From: a virus
DNA: 19,700 nucleotides
Direction: 5' to 3' (one strand)
UHGV virus genome: UHGV-1796434
A program made the translations under genes and the position numbers. Positions 13,519 to 19,700 of this stretch are shown here, piece by piece (the first letter of the stretch is position 1; each line of letters begins with the position of its first letter). The notes under the pieces are model-generated. The model saw only the letters and a list, made by a program, of their open reading frames with translations. It did no database searches and was not told the DNA's origin.

Positions 13519-14737
13519 TGGCGTTATCCTTCTGCTTACCGGCTTTACTGCCATCGGAGGGTTTCGTGGTCATGTTCATCGGTGTGAGATAGACATCCCC
13601 ACCGGGACGCGGATTCATATCTTCCAGGCCGCGGCAGTCATTGGGAGAGTAAATTCCCCAGTTAATCCCGGTGGCGTAGGCTTCAAAACGGGACTTCATA
13701 TCCCCGCGCAGTAACGCCCCGGCGTTAAATTTGGCGTAATAAACGCCCTGCTTACTTTTTCGTACCAGTCCGGTGTTGATCCGCTGCTCAATGCGGGTCA
13801 GATACGGCACCAGTGAATAGTTGATAAATCCGAGCCCCAGCTCTTCGATATTGTTGAAGGTGGCGCGATCGGTGTTCTGCACCATGTGCAACGGCACCCG
13901 GAACAGACGACAAATTTCTTCAAGCTGAAACTTGCGGGTTTCCAGGAACTGGCTGTCCTCTGCGTTCAACGCCATCGACTTCCAGTCCAGCCCCATCTCA
14001 AGGATCATCGGGCGGTGAGCATTGCCAAGCCCGGTGTGACGCTCCTCAAAATCTTTCTTCAGGCGCTCATAAGCCTGATCCGACAGCGTCTGCTCTGTAC
14101 GCAAAACACCCGACGTCACCGCGCCATTGCTGAACAGTCTGGCCCCGTGCTCTTCGGTCGCTGCCGCCAGCGATATTGCCTCGCGGGCATAGGCGATGGG
14201 ATTCAGCCCCACCAGTCCGTCCAGCGTCAGCGTACGCACATGCCAGATATCCTCCTGGCTCAGTACATCCGTGGAGCCATCCGGGAATGTGACCTGATAG
14301 ACCGGTTCCCAGCTACTGTTAAGCTTCGGTACCACACAGCCGGGATCGACGGGCAGCAGTTCAGCCACTTCGCCAAATGCTTTCACTTTGTAGGCGTAAA
14401 AGTTTCCCCGCAGGCACAGACAGGTGACCACCAGCTCCCAGAACTCCTGCGGCGTCATATAGCCATTGGGATGCGTGGAGATCAGTTTATGCAGACGTTC
14501 GCCGGTGGCTCTCTGCTTCAGGCTGCCGTTCAGGTGATACAGATTGCAGGGCAACATCCCGACCGACTCTGCCAGCACTCTGACGCAGGAAAAAACCGCC
14601 GTCAGTCGCATAGCCCGCTGACTGCTGATCTGCTTTCCGGTATAGGTGTCATACGACAGCCCGATGGCATCCGCCAGCTCTGCTGGCGTGGTCACCGGTG
14701 CGTCACTTTTTCGTTGAAATAATCCCGAAAAGAACAC
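13496..14737 (-). CDS. Portal protein, HK97 family
   Basis: 413 aa track ORF; GTG start at 14735-14737 with GGAGGT SD, overlapping the stop of the upstream small ORF by 1 nt. Confidence 0.8.
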   Translation of the reverse strand: MFFSGLFQRKSDAPVTTPAELADAIGLSYDTYTGKQISSQRAMRLTAVFSCVRVLAESVGMLPCNLYHLNGSLKQRATGERLHKLISTHPNGYMTPQEFWELVVTCLCLRGNFYAYKVKAFGEVAELLPVDPGCVVPKLNSSWEPVYQVTFPDGSTDVLSQEDIWHVRTLTLDGLVGLNPIAYAREAISLAAATEEHGARLFSNGAVTSGVLRTEQTLSDQAYERLKKDFEERHTGLGNAHRPMILEMGLDWKSMALNAEDSQFLETRKFQLEEICRLFRVPLHMVQNTDRATFNNIEELGLGFINYSLVPYLTRIEQRINTGLVRKSKQGVYYAKFNAGALLRGDMKSRFEAYATGINWGIYSPNDCRGLEDMNPRPGGDVYLTPMNMTTKPSDGSKAGKQKDNANADETTS

Positions 14738-14919
14738 TATTTACCTCCGCCGACAGACGACTGTGTACGGTCGAGATATCGCGCCACCAGCCACGACCAG
14801 AACAGGCACAGCGCCCCGGCAACAACAAAACCCGCCGGGGGATAAATCAGCCAGGCACCATACGCCAGCAAAAGCGCACCCAGCACGCCCACCAGAGGCG
14901 CGAGAATCAGCATGATCAT
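14737..14919 (-). CDS. Small hydrophobic protein with two predicted transmembrane segments
   Basis: 60 aa track [66 protein letters not shown] at 14917-14919 with GAGGT SD placed just after the terminase stop; its stop overlaps the portal start. Confidence 0.45.
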
Positions 14920-14930
14920 AATTACCTCAG

Positions 14931-16664
14931 TTAAAGCGAGCGGATCCCGTAGGACTCAATGTGATCAGACAGCGTGTCTTCTTTCTCGTACAGCATGGCT
15001 CTGCCAACCGCCATAATCAGCGCAACTGCACCATCGATTTTGTTTTCCGCCTGCTCCTTGACGGGCTTCACCACATCATCGTTACCCGGAATGGTTTTGC
15101 CGACCACGTTGCCGATACACCAGGTCATGATGGGATTGCCGTCATGATGAAAGCGCCCCGATTCAATCGCCGCTTCCAGCTCTTTCATCGGATCGGACAT
15201 GTTGGTGTAGTTCTGAATGATGGTGACGGGGTTCAGGTCTTCATCAGCAAGGTCATGTGACAGCCCGGTCGCCCCGAAGGGGTCGATGGGTGACTCACTG
15301 ACCGGGCTGATTTTGTTCGCCGCTTTGGCCTCTTCGAGGATGTAGCGATAATCCACCTCCGCACCATCGGTAACGGTCAGAACGCCCATTTCCACCCATT
15401 TCTGAAAGCGTTCGGCTGTCCGGCGATCTTCATTTTTCTCGACGCTGTACACCGTGTCATACGGTACCCAGAAACGCGGGGCCACACTGTAGTAATGCGT
15501 TTTACCGTCAATCTCGCGGGTATAAAGTCGCGCCATGCTGTTCATATCCAGCTTACGCGCCAGGTCAAAGGCCAGAATGCACGGCTGCCCCTCGAACTGC
15601 TCAAGGGTCAGTGATTTATCCTCGCAGCTCTGCCAGCTCACCAGGTTGAAATACGCCGAACGCGCCGACACCCAGATATTGAGGTGTTTTGTTTTAAAGA
15701 CGTTTGCCAGACGGGCGTTATTTTTCGCACGCTGCTGCTGACTTAACAAAAATTCGCGATAAACCGACACGCCAATATTTGGATTGGCTTTTTCCAGCAC
15801 CTGCGGGTCGGTCCAGTCGTCACCTTCATCAACGGTATAGATGATCCCGAACAGTTCATCGTTTGGCACCGAGCCGTTGAGCATCTCGATGACTTCCCGC
15901 CGTTTGTCGTAGCACGGCCCCTCAATGTTGTACCCGGCGGTGGTAATGGCCCACATCAGTGGCTGGCGTCGCGCCCCCATCCCGGTAAGCATCGTGGTGT
16001 AAAGCGCATCTGTGGCGTGCTCGTGATATTCATCCACCACGGCACAGTGGGGTGATGAACCATCACCGGGGTTACCGATCAGCGGTTCAAACCGCGCACC
16101 ATCCTCCGGACGGTTCATGTTTGAGGCGTTAACCTCAATCCCGAACGCTTCCGTCAGCATGGGTGTGCGTTTACACATCAGTCGCGCCGGGCGAAAGACT
16201 TCCCACGCCTGTTTCTCTGTCGTGGCACCGGAATACACTTCCGCGCCGAACTCGTTATCACAGGCAAAACAATACAGGGCAACACCGGCAGAGATTGCCG
16301 ATTTGCCGTTCTTACGGGGAATTTCGGTATACACCTCCCGGAAGCGGCGCAACCGGGTGCCTTTATTGACCCAGCCAAACGCACAGCAGATCACAAATAG
16401 CTGCCACGGCTCCAGCGTGATGGGCATCCGTTTAAATGCCCACTCACCCTTGGTGTGCGGCAACAGCTGAATAAATTTGGCGGCCCGTTCAGCCAGGTCC
16501 TTGTCGAAGCGGTAACGAAACGACTTACTTTTTTCCGCCATCAGGTCATCAAGATGGCGCTGGCAGGCCTGAATCACAAACTGGCAGGCAATAATCTTTC
16601 CGCGCACGACATCCCGGGCATACTGATTTGCAGCATTTACGTTGGGGTAAGATTTCCGGCTCAT
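14931..16664 (-). CDS. Terminase large subunit
   Basis: 577 aa track ORF; ATG at 16662-16664 overlapping the small-subunit stop (ATGA). Contains a P-loop-like PRKNGKS segment; length and position typical. Confidence 0.85.
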
Positions 16665-17155
16665 GATTCGATAATTTTCAGAAACGGGTTAGTGGCTTTC
16701 TTCTTCCCCGCCAGGCCAATCAGACGCTGGCGGCTGCTGGGGTCGAGTCCGAGCATTGCCCCCGTACTGCTCATCTCGGACTCCTGTTCTTTTTTGGCGG
16801 TCAGCTCCGGATTTTTGACCATACCGCCCATTGCACCGGTGATGGTGTTGCCCTGTCTGGCAATATTTTTCACGGCACGTCGCCAGAACTCGTAGGCCAC
16901 GCACCACCGCTCAAGCACCGCGAGGTCAGTCACGCACAGCAGGCCCTGACCGCAGAGTTCTTTGGTTGTCAGTTGCCACATGATCGTGGCGAGAGGGAGA
17001 TCTTCTTCAGCGAACCACTCCGGTGGCTCAACACCTTTGATGGGCGTAAAAACAGGTTCATCTTTATTCAGGGCTCGCTTGCCGGGGTTTCCGGCCAGCG
17101 CCTTGCGCGCCGTTGGCTTGGGGCGACGCCCGGAACGCCCCGCCGTTCCAGCCAT
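16661..17155 (-). CDS. Terminase small subunit (P27 family)
   Basis: Track ORF starts at GTG 17164; I prefer the ATG at 17153-17155 ([14 protein letters not shown]...), which has AGGAG 8 nt upstream. Family call from memory of P27-type small subunits. Confidence 0.7.
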
Positions 17156-17205
17156 ATGCGGCACTCCTGGTTAAATTTCATTTTTCGCGGGTATAAAAAA
17201 ACGAT

Positions 17206-17254
17206 GGGGCGGGCAGTCCGGAAGACGTCAGGCCGCAGGGATTTGACCCGCCCC
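17206..17254. promoter_or_regulatory. GC-rich inverted repeat in the HNH-terminase intergenic region; candidate cos/terminase recognition region or terminator
   Basis: GGGGCGGG at 17206-17213 and CCCGCCCC at 17247-17254 flank a 33 nt spacer containing GACGTC; on the minus strand the distal arm is followed by a T7 run. Location matches where HK97-like phages place cos. Confidence 0.3.
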
Positions 17255-17280
17255 TCCCCTCAGGCAGTTGAGAATTATTA

Positions 17281-17631
17281 TCACTTCAACCGTTCACGGG
17301 CCGTCTTCGCCTTATGACACGGCCAGCACAGACTCTGCAGATTACAGTCGGCATCAGTGCCGCCATGCGCTTTAGGGATGATGTGGTCAACGGTTTTCGC
17401 CTCGCGCACCACACCAGCACGCAGGCACAACTGGCATAAACCTTTGTCACGTTTCAGCACACGCGTGCGGATAACGTCCCACTTCGAACCGTAGCCGCGC
17501 TGATGACGGGATTGTCCTGGCTTGTATTGCTTCCAGCCTTCGCTTTTGTGGCTTTCGCAATAACCTGACGGGTCAGTGGTGGTATGGCGGCACCCGCGAA
17601 CACGGCAGGCTTTTGGTGTGCGTGGTGGCAT
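17281..17631 (-). CDS. HNH endonuclease (terminase-associated)
   Basis: 116 aa track ORF; ATG at 17629-17631 with AAGGA SD. N-terminal Cys cluster (CRVRGC...C) and C-terminal HNH motif (DHIIPKAHGG...N...LCWPCH). Sits immediately upstream of the terminase genes, as in HK97-like phages. Confidence 0.8.
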   Translation of the reverse strand: MPPRTPKACRVRGCRHTTTDPSGYCESHKSEGWKQYKPGQSRHQRGYGSKWDVIRTRVLKRDKGLCQLCLRAGVVREAKTVDHIIPKAHGGTDADCNLQSLCWPCHKAKTARERLK

Positions 17632-17720
17632 TATCCGTCCTTCGGTGATGTAGCTGCTTCTGTTGGGTTCATAGTTGAAATCCTGTTACGCCATAGCAAT
17701 GTATCTGCCATCATAATGGC

Positions 17721-17747
17721 AATAAAAAAGCCCCGCGATTGCGGGGC
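17721..17747 (-). terminator. Rho-independent terminator after the 133 aa gene
   Basis: Minus-strand reading AGCCCCGC-AATC-GCGGGGCT followed by TTTTTTAT: an 8 bp GC-rich stem, 4 nt loop and U-tract, about 20 nt downstream of the stop. Confidence 0.55.
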
Positions 17748-17765
17748 TGATGGTTATATAAAATA

Positions 17766-18167
17766 TTAGCCAATTAAGTCGTCAATTTTTTTCTGAATAT
17801 AACCATCCAGCAAACGCCTTGAAACGTCAACTAATGTTCCAATGCTTGCATCTTTAAAGCCGGTCTTGAGAGAATTCCAAACCTCTTTATTCCTGAGAGC
17901 TTCAAGGAAGTCATGACCGCTTGAAGTTAATCGTAACGGTATAACGAACCATGATCCTCCATCAGCAGCCTCAGAGAAACCAAACCCATACTTGCCGTCT
18001 GTTCTAGCAATTAGTTGACGATCAGCCAATAAACGCATATGGAATAAAAATTCATCGGTGCTGTAGTCATACCCAGCCAGCTGCAGCTGCTTTATATCAG
18101 TATGCGGCTCTTCAGACGCCTCGAAAGCTTCCAAAAGACCTTTCAAATACTCGTGATCTATTTTCAT
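17766..18167 (-). CDS. Hypothetical protein, 133 aa (possibly DUF2513-like)
   Basis: Track ORF with ATG at 18165-18167 and AAGGGAA SD 5 nt upstream; followed by a rho-independent terminator. Lies in AT-rich DNA. DUF2513 resemblance is from memory only. Confidence 0.5.
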   Translation of the reverse strand: MKIDHEYLKGLLEAFEASEEPHTDIKQLQLAGYDYSTDEFLFHMRLLADRQLIARTDGKYGFGFSEAADGGSWFVIPLRLTSSGHDFLEALRNKEVWNSLKTGFKDASIGTLVDVSRRLLDGYIQKKIDDLIG

Positions 18168-18241
18168 AACATTCCCTTTTATGAATGAGGGAATAATTTA
18201 ACATTAAACTAGGCACTTGATGAATACTTGGCGTAATGTCG

Positions 18242-18436
18242 CTAGTGGTCGAGTTGCAATACACCGTGATTCAGTAACTCTAAATAAGCGATGAGCCCGG
18301 CATAAACGGGGATAAACTCACAATCATCTTCGAATTCTGGGATTATTCCGGTTGCGATGGTGTATTGAGGCTGGCTATCTTCCTTCGCGAAGGATGCAAG
18401 GTCTTCAAACTGCTTAGCTGTAAGAACCACTGTCAT
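18242..18436 (-). CDS. Hypothetical small acidic protein, 64 aa
   Basis: Track ORF MTVVLTAKQFEDLASFAKEDSQPQYTIATGIIPEFEDDCEFIPVYAGLIAYLELLNHGVLQLDH, with 11 Asp/Glu against 2 Lys. Start lies directly after the upstream terminator hairpin. No family recognised. Confidence 0.4.
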   Translation of the reverse strand: MTVVLTAKQFEDLASFAKEDSQPQYTIATGIIPEFEDDCEFIPVYAGLIAYLELLNHGVLQLDH

Positions 18437-18448
18437 ACCTCTGTCGTT

Positions 18449-18473
18449 AAAAAGCCTCGCTATTGCGAGGCTT
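18449..18473 (-). terminator. Terminator-like hairpin after the 73 aa gene
   Basis: Minus-strand reading AAGCCTCGC-AATA-GCGAGGCTT followed by TTTAA; the short U-tract runs into the SD and start region of the next ORF, so termination may be partial. Confidence 0.45.
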
Positions 18474-18490
18474 GGTTCGGAAGCTGATTA

Positions 18491-18712
18491 TTACTTGGTG
18501 AAGTGTCTGATAGCCTTCTCAACTTTTTCGTCAGTGACCATACCGTCACAACGTGCGACGTTATAACTTATCCCGTCTAGTTCGTACTCCTCGATAGGCA
18601 TAGTAAGCACGCCGCCCTTGTCACCCCTGAAGGTAACAATCTCCAGGTCGTCCTGGACAACAACATGATCAAACGCGTCACCCGGTAAAATAGCTATGAC
18701 ATTCTTTGGCAT
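18491..18712 (-). CDS. Hypothetical small protein, 73 aa
   Basis: Track ORF is 18491..18760 from a GTG. I prefer the ATG at 18710-18712 (MPKNVIAILPGDAFDHVVVQDD...), preceded by AAGGGG with 6 nt spacing. Followed by a terminator hairpin. Confidence 0.45.
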   Translation of the reverse strand: MPKNVIAILPGDAFDHVVVQDDLEIVTFRGDKGGVLTMPIEEYELDGISYNVARCDGMVTDEKVEKAIRHFTK

Positions 18713-18760
18713 TTTTATCCCCTTTTTTTTGCGGAGGATTAAATTACCACATTCATTCAC

Positions 18761-19006
18761 TTATGAACCAGATTCAGCTTCAAACCACAGTAGTGTGTCT
18801 TCCGACTCTTTGATAGCTTTCGTCGTTCTGGCTACCAGCCCGCTTTCAGATGTTACCCAGCTTAACTGGTTCACAAAGATTTGATACTTCAACGGATCGT
18901 CACCAACAAACTTAATCGCGTCTGCTGCAGCGGCGGTGTCATAGTACAGTTTCGCCAGCAGGTTTAAGCGGATCTGCTATGCAGGTGTAACCGTGATTTT
19001 AGACAT
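18761..19006 (-). pseudogene. Small ORF (about 81 codons) interrupted by an in-frame amber codon at codon 10
   Basis: Hand translation from ATG 19004-19006 (AGGGGA SD 6 nt upstream): MSKITVTPA, then TAG at about 18977-18979, then the frame stays open for 71 codons (QIRLNLLAKLYYDTAAAADAIKFVGDDPLKYQIFVNQLSWVTSESGLVARTTKAIKESEDTLLWFEAESGS) to TAA at 18761-18763. No in-frame ATG downstream of the TAG. Confidence 0.4.
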
Positions 19007-19121
19007 TGTTTATCCCCTGGTGGGTATATTTATTGTCTTATCCGCTTGTTGGGATATCCATTATCAAAGCCACTCTGCAAGGAATGGCTTTTATGATGGC
19101 AATAAAAACAGTCGTAGGAGG

Positions 19122-19370
19122 TTAGATTAAGTCTTCACGTTTTTCATATTCATCGATATGATAAAGATGCATAAACTTTTCATCATGCCCACCAAATATC
19201 TGTGTTATCGATTCGTCATCCCGGCCTTCAACAATTAAATGCTTTTCATGTGTTCCTGGCATAAATAACGCCTTTACAACATATTCTAAGTGGTGTTTGA
19301 ACTGTACGTGAAGCTCTCTTGCATCCTCAAAAGGAATATTTTCGGTAAGTTCAAAATAACGAAATGCCAT
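19122..19370 (-). CDS. Hypothetical small acidic, His-rich protein, 82 aa
   Basis: Track ORF; ATG at 19368-19370 with GGGAGGT SD 4 nt upstream. Product MAFRYFELTENIPFEDARELHVQFKHHLEYVV... has several His residues and is AT-rich in codon usage. No family recognised. Confidence 0.5.
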   Translation of the reverse strand: MAFRYFELTENIPFEDARELHVQFKHHLEYVVKALFMPGTHEKHLIVEGRDDESITQIFGGHDEKFMHLYHIDEYEKREDLI

Positions 19371-19413
19371 ATCTACCTCCCGTATAATGAGAGCTCATCA
19401 TTAATGAATTTTC

Positions 19414-19431
19414 TTGTCATGACAATGACAA
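19414..19431. promoter_or_regulatory. Operator-like palindrome TTGTCATGACAA plus an extra TGACAA half-site, upstream of the 82 aa gene
   Basis: Perfect 12 bp palindrome at 19414-19425 followed by a direct repeat of the half-site at 19426-19431, about 45-60 nt upstream of the 82 aa gene start and overlapping TTGTCA -35-like hexamers on the minus strand. Confidence 0.3.
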
Positions 19432-19700
19432 ATTATTTCAGGTTCCATTAGATATAGCTTTGTAATGAACTGGCACTTATCTCAACACAGCCCTTACCGC
19501 GCGCCAGATGCTCAATATCAAGCATCAGCAATGAGATGTTTAATCTGGATTCGCTCCAGAAGTAAGCACCACCCTGTCTACAGAGCCAGATGTGAAGGAT
19601 GATTGATCCTACCCACGTAATATGGACACAGGCCTAAGCGAGGTTCTTGTTTTCAAATTGTTCCGGACTGAGGCCGCCACACCAACTGTGCCGCCGCCAC

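Follow-up and report, generated by a model that had tools for sequence, protein, structure and literature searches.

What occupies the short gap between the gene for an HNH endonuclease and terS, the gene for the small terminase subunit, in the 19,700-nucleotide stretch of virus genome UHGV-1796434 that was analyzed here (the window)? An earlier note, made from the letters of this DNA, had proposed that positions 17165-17280 hold a cohesive-end packaging site (cos) with a GC-rich inverted repeat, and had named a terminator of the HNH transcript as the alternative. The analysis described below indicates that an SfI/SfII/SfV-like temperate myovirus prophage, with an HK97-style, HNH-assisted terminase, very probably has its cos site in this gap; at such a site the packaging machinery divides replicated DNA into lengths of one genome. 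The inverted repeat is incidental to this site and has no structural role. Every gene in the cos part of the window lies on the minus strand, and positions relative to the cut are counted in that direction, with -1 and +1 on its two sides.

Identification of the cos site

The late region of the window is ~97% identical (megablast against annotated phages) to SfI, SfII, SfIV and SfV, myoviruses that convert the serotype of Shigella flexneri, and to some E. coli phages. The gap itself matches the cos regions of the four Sf phages at 99-100% identity, with a single base different from SfII (99.3% identity). For SfI, run-off sequencing of virion DNA with primers in the HNH and terS genes, compared with the prophage, revealed a 10-nt gap, 5'-TGCCCGCCCC-3', which was named the cos of that phage (PMC3636060). 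The same 10-mer occurs once in the window, on the minus strand at 17215..17206, and with it the window carries the mapped cohesive end of a family member. By homology to such mapped sites, concatemeric DNA of this prophage would be cut at TGCCCGCCCC.

Termini recorded independently for other phages fall at the same place. The GenBank record of phiP27 has a 10-bp misc_feature, “cos-site” (CGCCCGCCCC), at the aligned position of the window 10-mer, and the linear records of HK97 and of EPP-1, a virion-derived Edwardsiella phage, break at the same aligned point as the window cut. In the HK97 record, T16 and the T24-30 A-tract coincide with published TerS contacts (PMC11331095), from which it follows that position 1 of that record is the published +1. 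The predicted cut of the window, -10..-1 | +1, thus matches the independent termini of its relatives.

Several Sf-type linear records start or stop inside sequence equivalent to the gap. The SfII cos was placed by its authors at bp 59-125 (PMC3772137), which corresponds to window 17222-17156, and the SfIV cos was reported to be identical (PMC3851460). The SfI paper describes the cos of SfV as no more than a postulate (PMC3636060). The SfV and SfIV records break at 17223|17222, 17 nt upstream of the SfI cut; we considered this break as a mapped cut and rejected it, as it is the start of those authors' 67-bp “cos” region.

The location given in the earlier note is therefore borne out by the identity to the Sf cos regions, the SfI 10-mer and the termini of phiP27, HK97 and EPP-1. 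A comparison with the cos sequences of SfV and HK97, which the note had suggested, agrees: from -14 to +50 the window is identical to SfV, the two differing at five bases that all lie upstream of -24, and HK97 breaks where the window is predicted to be cut. Compared with the Sf phages, the window has A at +1 like SfV, where SfI has G, and shows a few substitutions in the variable spacer described below; its neighboring HNH, terS and terL genes are the same as theirs. The cos itself is already known: SfI, SfII, SfIV and SfV have the same one, and that of phiP27 is closely related.

The length of 116 bp that the note had given for the gap depends on where terS starts. It holds for the GTG at 17164 of a mechanical open reading frame list (167 aa), and it becomes 125 bp with the ATG at 17155 (164 aa). 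The SfV, SfI, SfII and SfIV records annotate the start at the ATG equivalent to 17155, and AGGAG at 17168-17164 precedes this codon.

Conserved layout of the site

A first TerS scan of viral contigs returned only loci 99-100% identical, which were of no use for covariation and served for a fine-scale map of variability. A scan for distant relatives, in which a TerS alignment (window plus phiP27) was compared with one genome per species, yielded 35 loci chosen only by TerS homology, with TerS identities from 99% to 29%, from Enterobacterales, Aeromonas, Pseudomonas, Burkholderiales, Roseomonas and others. In 32 of these 35 diverse loci, an HNH gene precedes terS. The region around the cut aligns gap-free in 31 of the 35 (TerS identity 33-99%), a MAFFT alignment of the relatives contains just a few single-column gaps around the cut, and at the locus with a TerS only 29% identical (L129) the upstream layout matches by eye.

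The common layout consists of a G-rich box, TCAAATC (-41), a variable spacer, GGAC and the 10-mer before the cut, followed by RTCG, a T-run, AYACCCGCGAAA (+12..+23) and AATGAAATT (+24..+33) after it (Table 1). The information content of the columns was calculated from an ungapped alignment of 35 unique sequences anchored on CCGCG and the nearby T-run, so that part of the conservation in these anchor columns is built in; the degree to which distant relatives conserve the region is clearly non-random. Judged on the aligned sequences, the cut is flanked at fixed spacing by G-box/TCAAATC (-55..-35), GGAC (-14..-11) and the T-run with ACCCGCGAAA (+5..+23). TCAAATC appears in the relatives as TCAAATC, TAAAATC or GAAAGTC, and the T5 at +7..+11 is nearly invariant, even at loci that have no stem upstream.

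Table 1. Coordinates of the predicted parts of the cos site and of the adjoining genes (bits, information content per column over 35 unique sequences)
Feature	Window position	Position relative to cut	Strand	Remarks
G-rich box AGGGGAGGGGCGGG	17247..17260	-55..-42	minus	mean 1.03 bits
TCAAATC motif	17240..17246	-41..-35	minus	offset -41 in both window and HK97
Variable spacer	17220..17239	-34..-15	minus	0.5 bits, lowest in region; makes up most of the hairpin “loop”
GGAC	17216..17219	-14..-11	minus	1.42 bits; A and C invariant (MAFFT); just upstream of 10-mer
cosN 10-mer TGCCCGCCCC	17206..17215	-10..-1	minus	SfI run-off gap; contains the whole terS-proximal arm 17206-17213
T7 run	17195..17201	+5..+11	minus	1.56 bits; conserved T-tract just inside the packaged left end
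AYACCCGCGAAAAATGAAATTT, candidate TerS site (cosB-like)	17173..17194	+12..+33	minus	+12..+23, 1.65 bits; +24..+33, 1.27 bits
HNH endonuclease gene	17281-17631		minus	Pfam HNH, E 5e-15; last gene before cos
terS, P27-family small terminase	16661-17155 (ATG) or 17164 (GTG)		minus	Pfam Terminase_4, E 2e-21; phrog_83
terL, HK97-type large terminase	14931-16664		minus	Pfam TerL_ATPase and TerL_nuclease

At fine scale, window 17155-17330 was set against 45 unique, nearly identical relatives (L016-L095): 70% of the sites in the spacer at -34..-15 and 75% of those in the post-stop spacer vary, and there is no variation at all from -13 through +50. These relatives were picked by TerS identity, so that the pattern partly reflects linkage. 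The drop in variability points to a boundary of mosaicism or recombination that coincides with the cos cut or lies slightly upstream of it.

Several other features of the region were observed in these comparisons. Among nearly identical HK97-like phages (L135-L210), the G-run upstream of ATCAAATC varies from about G7 to G11, which indicates that the length of the G-box is loosely constrained on its upstream side. The T7 (+5..+11) and A5 (+21..+25) runs, at window 17181-17201, form an inverted pair around ATACCCGCG that is paired by RNAfold; viewed as DNA, the runs are A-tracts of opposite orientation that enclose a GC core, an arrangement typical of sites that a protein bends or wraps. Small palindromes in the spacer of several loci (such as L106, AGGCGATCGCCT, and L124, AGCCGG-AA-CCGGCT) were considered and set aside, being not enriched over shuffles among 32 sequences (Fisher p = 0.52). 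One 5.6-kb contig of a metagenome-assembled genome labeled “Bacillota bacterium” (JAEWTL010000102.1, L096) carries terS, cos and HNH 96-99% identical to this prophage and is probably misbinned or contaminating.

The site could be a cos by descent and yet be inert, in a defective prophage that never packages its DNA. The window makes 19.7 kb of the element visible, and its upstream part is unusual. Homology to SfI, SfII, SfIV, SfV and vB_EcoM-689R6 ends at the HNH start codon; those phages have no match to the ~2 kb beyond it (17632-19700, with DUF2513/phrog_585, phrog_9518 and phrog_35226), and in the four Sf phages HNH is preceded by DNA unrelated to that of the window. A 155-bp piece (~19449-19603) that matches Sf6 gene 65 and mEp phages is the only such piece in these 2 kb, and of 5426 complete E. 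coli genomes, just 6 have the mosaic arrangement of DUF2513, HNH and terS at a coverage of at least 80%. Against decay of the element, all packaging, head and tail open reading frames in the window are full length with the expected domains present, the interval from -13 to +50 is identical in all 45 unique close relatives, and SfV, from which the site differs so little, is an isolated phage. An inert site is thus unlikely, and we continue with the reading of the gap as the cos site of an SfV-like prophage.

The inverted repeat

The GC-rich inverted repeat is present as the note had described it: the arms GGGGCGGG (17206-17213) and CCCGCCCC (17247-17254) are 8 nt long, 100% complementary (8 of 8) and separated by a core of 33 nt in the repeat search. 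Its role as a recognition structure does not follow, as one arm makes up most of the cohesive end, the other belongs to the G-box, and the pairing between them is neither conserved nor covarying. The repeat exists because the G-rich box faces the C-rich cohesive end; that the cohesive-end sequence yields the hairpin as a by-product is a mildly new observation.

Perfect inverted repeats of this size are not rare by chance. Of 2000 dinucleotide-shuffled versions of the gap, 175 (~9%) contained one of at least 8 bp (loop 3-60), and such a repeat is present in 29 of 338 real 116-nt windows of this sequence. As RNA, the gap folds no more stably than shuffled sequences do (z = -0.52), and RNAalifold returned no consensus pairs among 31 relatives. 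In the alignment the 8-bp stem is paired in 71.8% of cells, compared with 71.7% after column shuffling; covariation shows no excess, and slid registers give nearly equal values. With the register fixed, pairing within loci (4.48) is matched by pairing between loci (4.52; 3291 of 5000 permutations). With the register free, complementarity within loci is 4.94 nt against 4.66 nt, an excess of 0.28 nt (179 of 5000 permutations) that is confounded by relatedness.

A repeat that functions in its own right, as a DNA hairpin or cruciform or as paired inverted sites for a dimeric packaging protein, would be consistent with that slight free-register excess, with the moderate information in each individually conserved arm (1.0-1.25 bits), and with the perfect 8 of 8 Watson-Crick pairs in four sequences, those of the window, SfI, ST64B and phiP27. 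One further sequence has 7 of 8. This means that at least 7 of 8 pairs are kept in just 5 of the 31 diverged sequences and that perfect pairing is confined to the SfV/P27 subgroup, and two Paraburkholderia loci (L121 and L123) have 0 of 8 pairs and keep the rest of the layout. In HK97, a G9 run stands opposite CGCCGCCAAA with no matching repeat. As the pairing also shows no fixed-register excess and no covariation beyond the shuffle control, has a frequency of ~9% in shuffles, and involves one arm that is fully accounted for as the cohesive end, we regard a functional repeat as very improbable.

The terminator alternative

A Rho-independent terminator formed by the hairpin and the T7 run, ending the late or lysis transcript that contains HNH, would draw on much the same sequence. 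The 8-bp stem is GC-rich, the 49-nt hairpin has a predicted free energy of -23.4 kcal/mol as RNA (-15.6 for the outer stem alone), and the T7 run that the note had placed after the distal arm on the coding strand is indeed there, at 17201..17195 after ATCG. The geometry is not that of a terminator: the loop is 33 nt where ~3-8 nt is usual, and a 4-nt spacer (AUCG) separates the stem from U7, which begins 4 nt downstream instead of immediately. A consensus terminator scan missed this hairpin and yet called another one in the window (17748-17729), no Rfam match was found anywhere in the window, and the fold, RNAalifold and covariation results given above provide no support for pairing that is conserved or unusually stable. 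In addition, the distances from the T-run to the cut and to the ACCCGCG motif stay fixed even at loci with no stem, such as the two Paraburkholderia loci, and terS, terL and the head genes, which lie directly downstream on the same strand, would need read-through.

Termination of the HNH transcript in the gap, the alternative raised in the note, is thus highly unlikely. The T7 run belongs to the most conserved DNA block, at the position where the TerS of HK97 binds, and is for this reason more likely to be part of the TerS site than the tail of a terminator, which corrects the earlier description.

The hairpin that the scan did call, on the minus strand at 17748-17729, is a canonical intrinsic terminator (AGCCCCGC-AATC-GCGGGGCT followed by TTTTTATT; RNA free energy -16.6 kcal/mol). 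It separates the DUF2513 gene (17766-18167) from the HNH gene and lies ~450 bp upstream of the gap hairpin. As HNH, cos and terS are downstream of this real terminator, they presumably rely on antiterminated late transcription.

Gene setting

On the minus strand the genes follow the order HNH, terS, terL, portal, S78 prohead protease and HK97-fold capsid, all six assigned through Pfam, and from these assignments the set is recognized as an HK97-type module of the kind in which an HNH-associated cos is found. The top solved-structure relative of the HNH protein is the GVE2 phage HNH (5h0m, E 1e-11), and by its sequence the protein is assigned to the class of HK97 gp74 and GVE2 HNH. TerL has 26% identity to HK97 gp2 (E 5e-30). 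No sequence or profile similarity was detected between the TerS of the window and HK97 gp1, nor any sequence or profile homology to a solved structure; the alignment used for TerS structure prediction was shallow and came from database homologues 65-88% identical. A 60-aa open reading frame between terL and portal (14737-14919, minus strand) matches phrog_502, “membrane protein”, in the moron/auxiliary category, which is an odd position for such a gene.

Comparison with known packaging sites

Outside the Sf phages, the closest likeness is to phiP27, a Stx2e phage and the namesake of the P27 family of TerS proteins. Its TerS is 50% identical to that of the window, and its cos has the same layout and spacing, with an identical G-box and TCAAATCCCTG. 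Its spacer differs, as does the distal downstream block (AAATTAAAAATT, compared with AAAAATGAAATT in the window).

HK97 has the same gene order as the window, and its sequence upstream of the cut is visibly homologous, with a G-run, (A)TCAAATC from -41 and (T)GAC before a C-rich 10-mer, although it has TGAC where the window has GGAC. A G-run is found at this same position in HK97-type cos sites. The downstream side is different. HK97 has ACCCG at +18..+22 followed by T7, whereas the window has ACCCGCG at +14..+20 flanked by T7 and A5, so that ACCCG is shifted by 4 nt; HK97 also lacks a perfect inverted repeat, and its T7 A-tract lies inside its TerS site. The three-part linear layout, conserved gap-free across very distant hosts with an upstream half common to HK97, is a mildly new finding from these alignments.

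The cos of lambda (cosQ-cosN-cosB) has 12-nt 5' overhangs, gpNu1 as TerS, sites for integration host factor (IHF) in cosB, and no HNH partner. The site in the window would be analogous in its three-part logic, with an upstream element on the last-packaged end, a nick site and a TerS-binding region beside terS. A cos of the lambda type was ruled out, as SfI and phiP27 have 10-nt cohesive ends, TerS belongs to Terminase_4, and no match to the IHF consensus WATCAANNNNTTR with at most one mismatch was found in 17141-17300.

Proposed packaging mechanism

Cleavage of cos by TerL, which the HNH protein gp74 stimulates, leaves 10-nt 3' overhangs in HK97 (PMC9410871, PMC11331095). HK97 TerS stalls the motor at cos and recognizes a 15-bp site at +15..+29, CTAACCCGATTTTTT, in which an A-tract is read by its shape (PMC9410871, PMC11331095). 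Which protein cuts which strand in HK97 was left open (PMC11331095). In a sentence of its Discussion, PMC9410871 gives 10-nt 5' ends for lambda and 12-nt 3' ends for HK97, where its own Figure 1 legend and PMC11331095 give 10-nt 3' ends for HK97; the two numbers in that sentence appear to be swapped.

By analogy, TerL of the prophage would cut cosN with the help of the HNH protein encoded immediately upstream, and staggered nicks would leave 10-nt 3' overhangs. The run-off sequencing of SfI produced a gap and not an overlap, which points to 3' overhangs since both 5' ends are recessed, in agreement with HK97. The nicks would then lie at 17206/17205 on the minus strand and at 17215/17216 on the plus strand.

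The P27-family TerS is proposed to bind the T-run and AYACCCGCGAAAAATGAAATT (+5..+33), just inside the packaged end. The block at +12..+33 would be the cosB-like recognition site, overlapping the HK97 TerS window of +15..+29. It has the highest information of the region together with A/T-tracts, lies 12-33 bp inside the packaged end, and contains ACCCGCG flanked by a T-run and an A-run. Binding of TerS in the fashion of HK97, whose TerS ring has the DNA threaded through it, would position and stall the motor such that cosN is placed in the nuclease site. The G-box and TCAAATC (-55..-35) would form the third conserved element, on the last-packaged side, possibly as a cosQ-like element or as a contact for HNH or TerL.

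Implications for cos organization

The conserved layout raises the possibility, which we put forward tentatively and regard as somewhat doubtful, that the cos is modular, with the upstream half and the cut read by a shared pair of TerL and HNH and only the downstream half (T-run and ACCCGCGAAA...) specific to TerS. As the upstream half and the cut have identical spacing in HK97- and P27-type phages with dissimilar TerS sequences, these parts would be the ones read by TerL and HNH. If this is true, G-box/TCAAATC would be a cosQ-like termination element or a docking site for HNH, hosts as far apart as Enterobacterales, Burkholderiales and an alphaproteobacterium would share the layout, and the mosaic recombination boundary at cos would be explained. 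The layout also provides DNA targets, namely G-box/TCAAATC, GGAC with the 10-mer, and the T-run with ACCCGCGAAA, for tests that assign each protein to its part of the site. For the SfV-like prophage itself, the virion chromosome would have its left end at this site, a point of use for its annotation, the orientation of its map and the interpretation of PhageTerm results.
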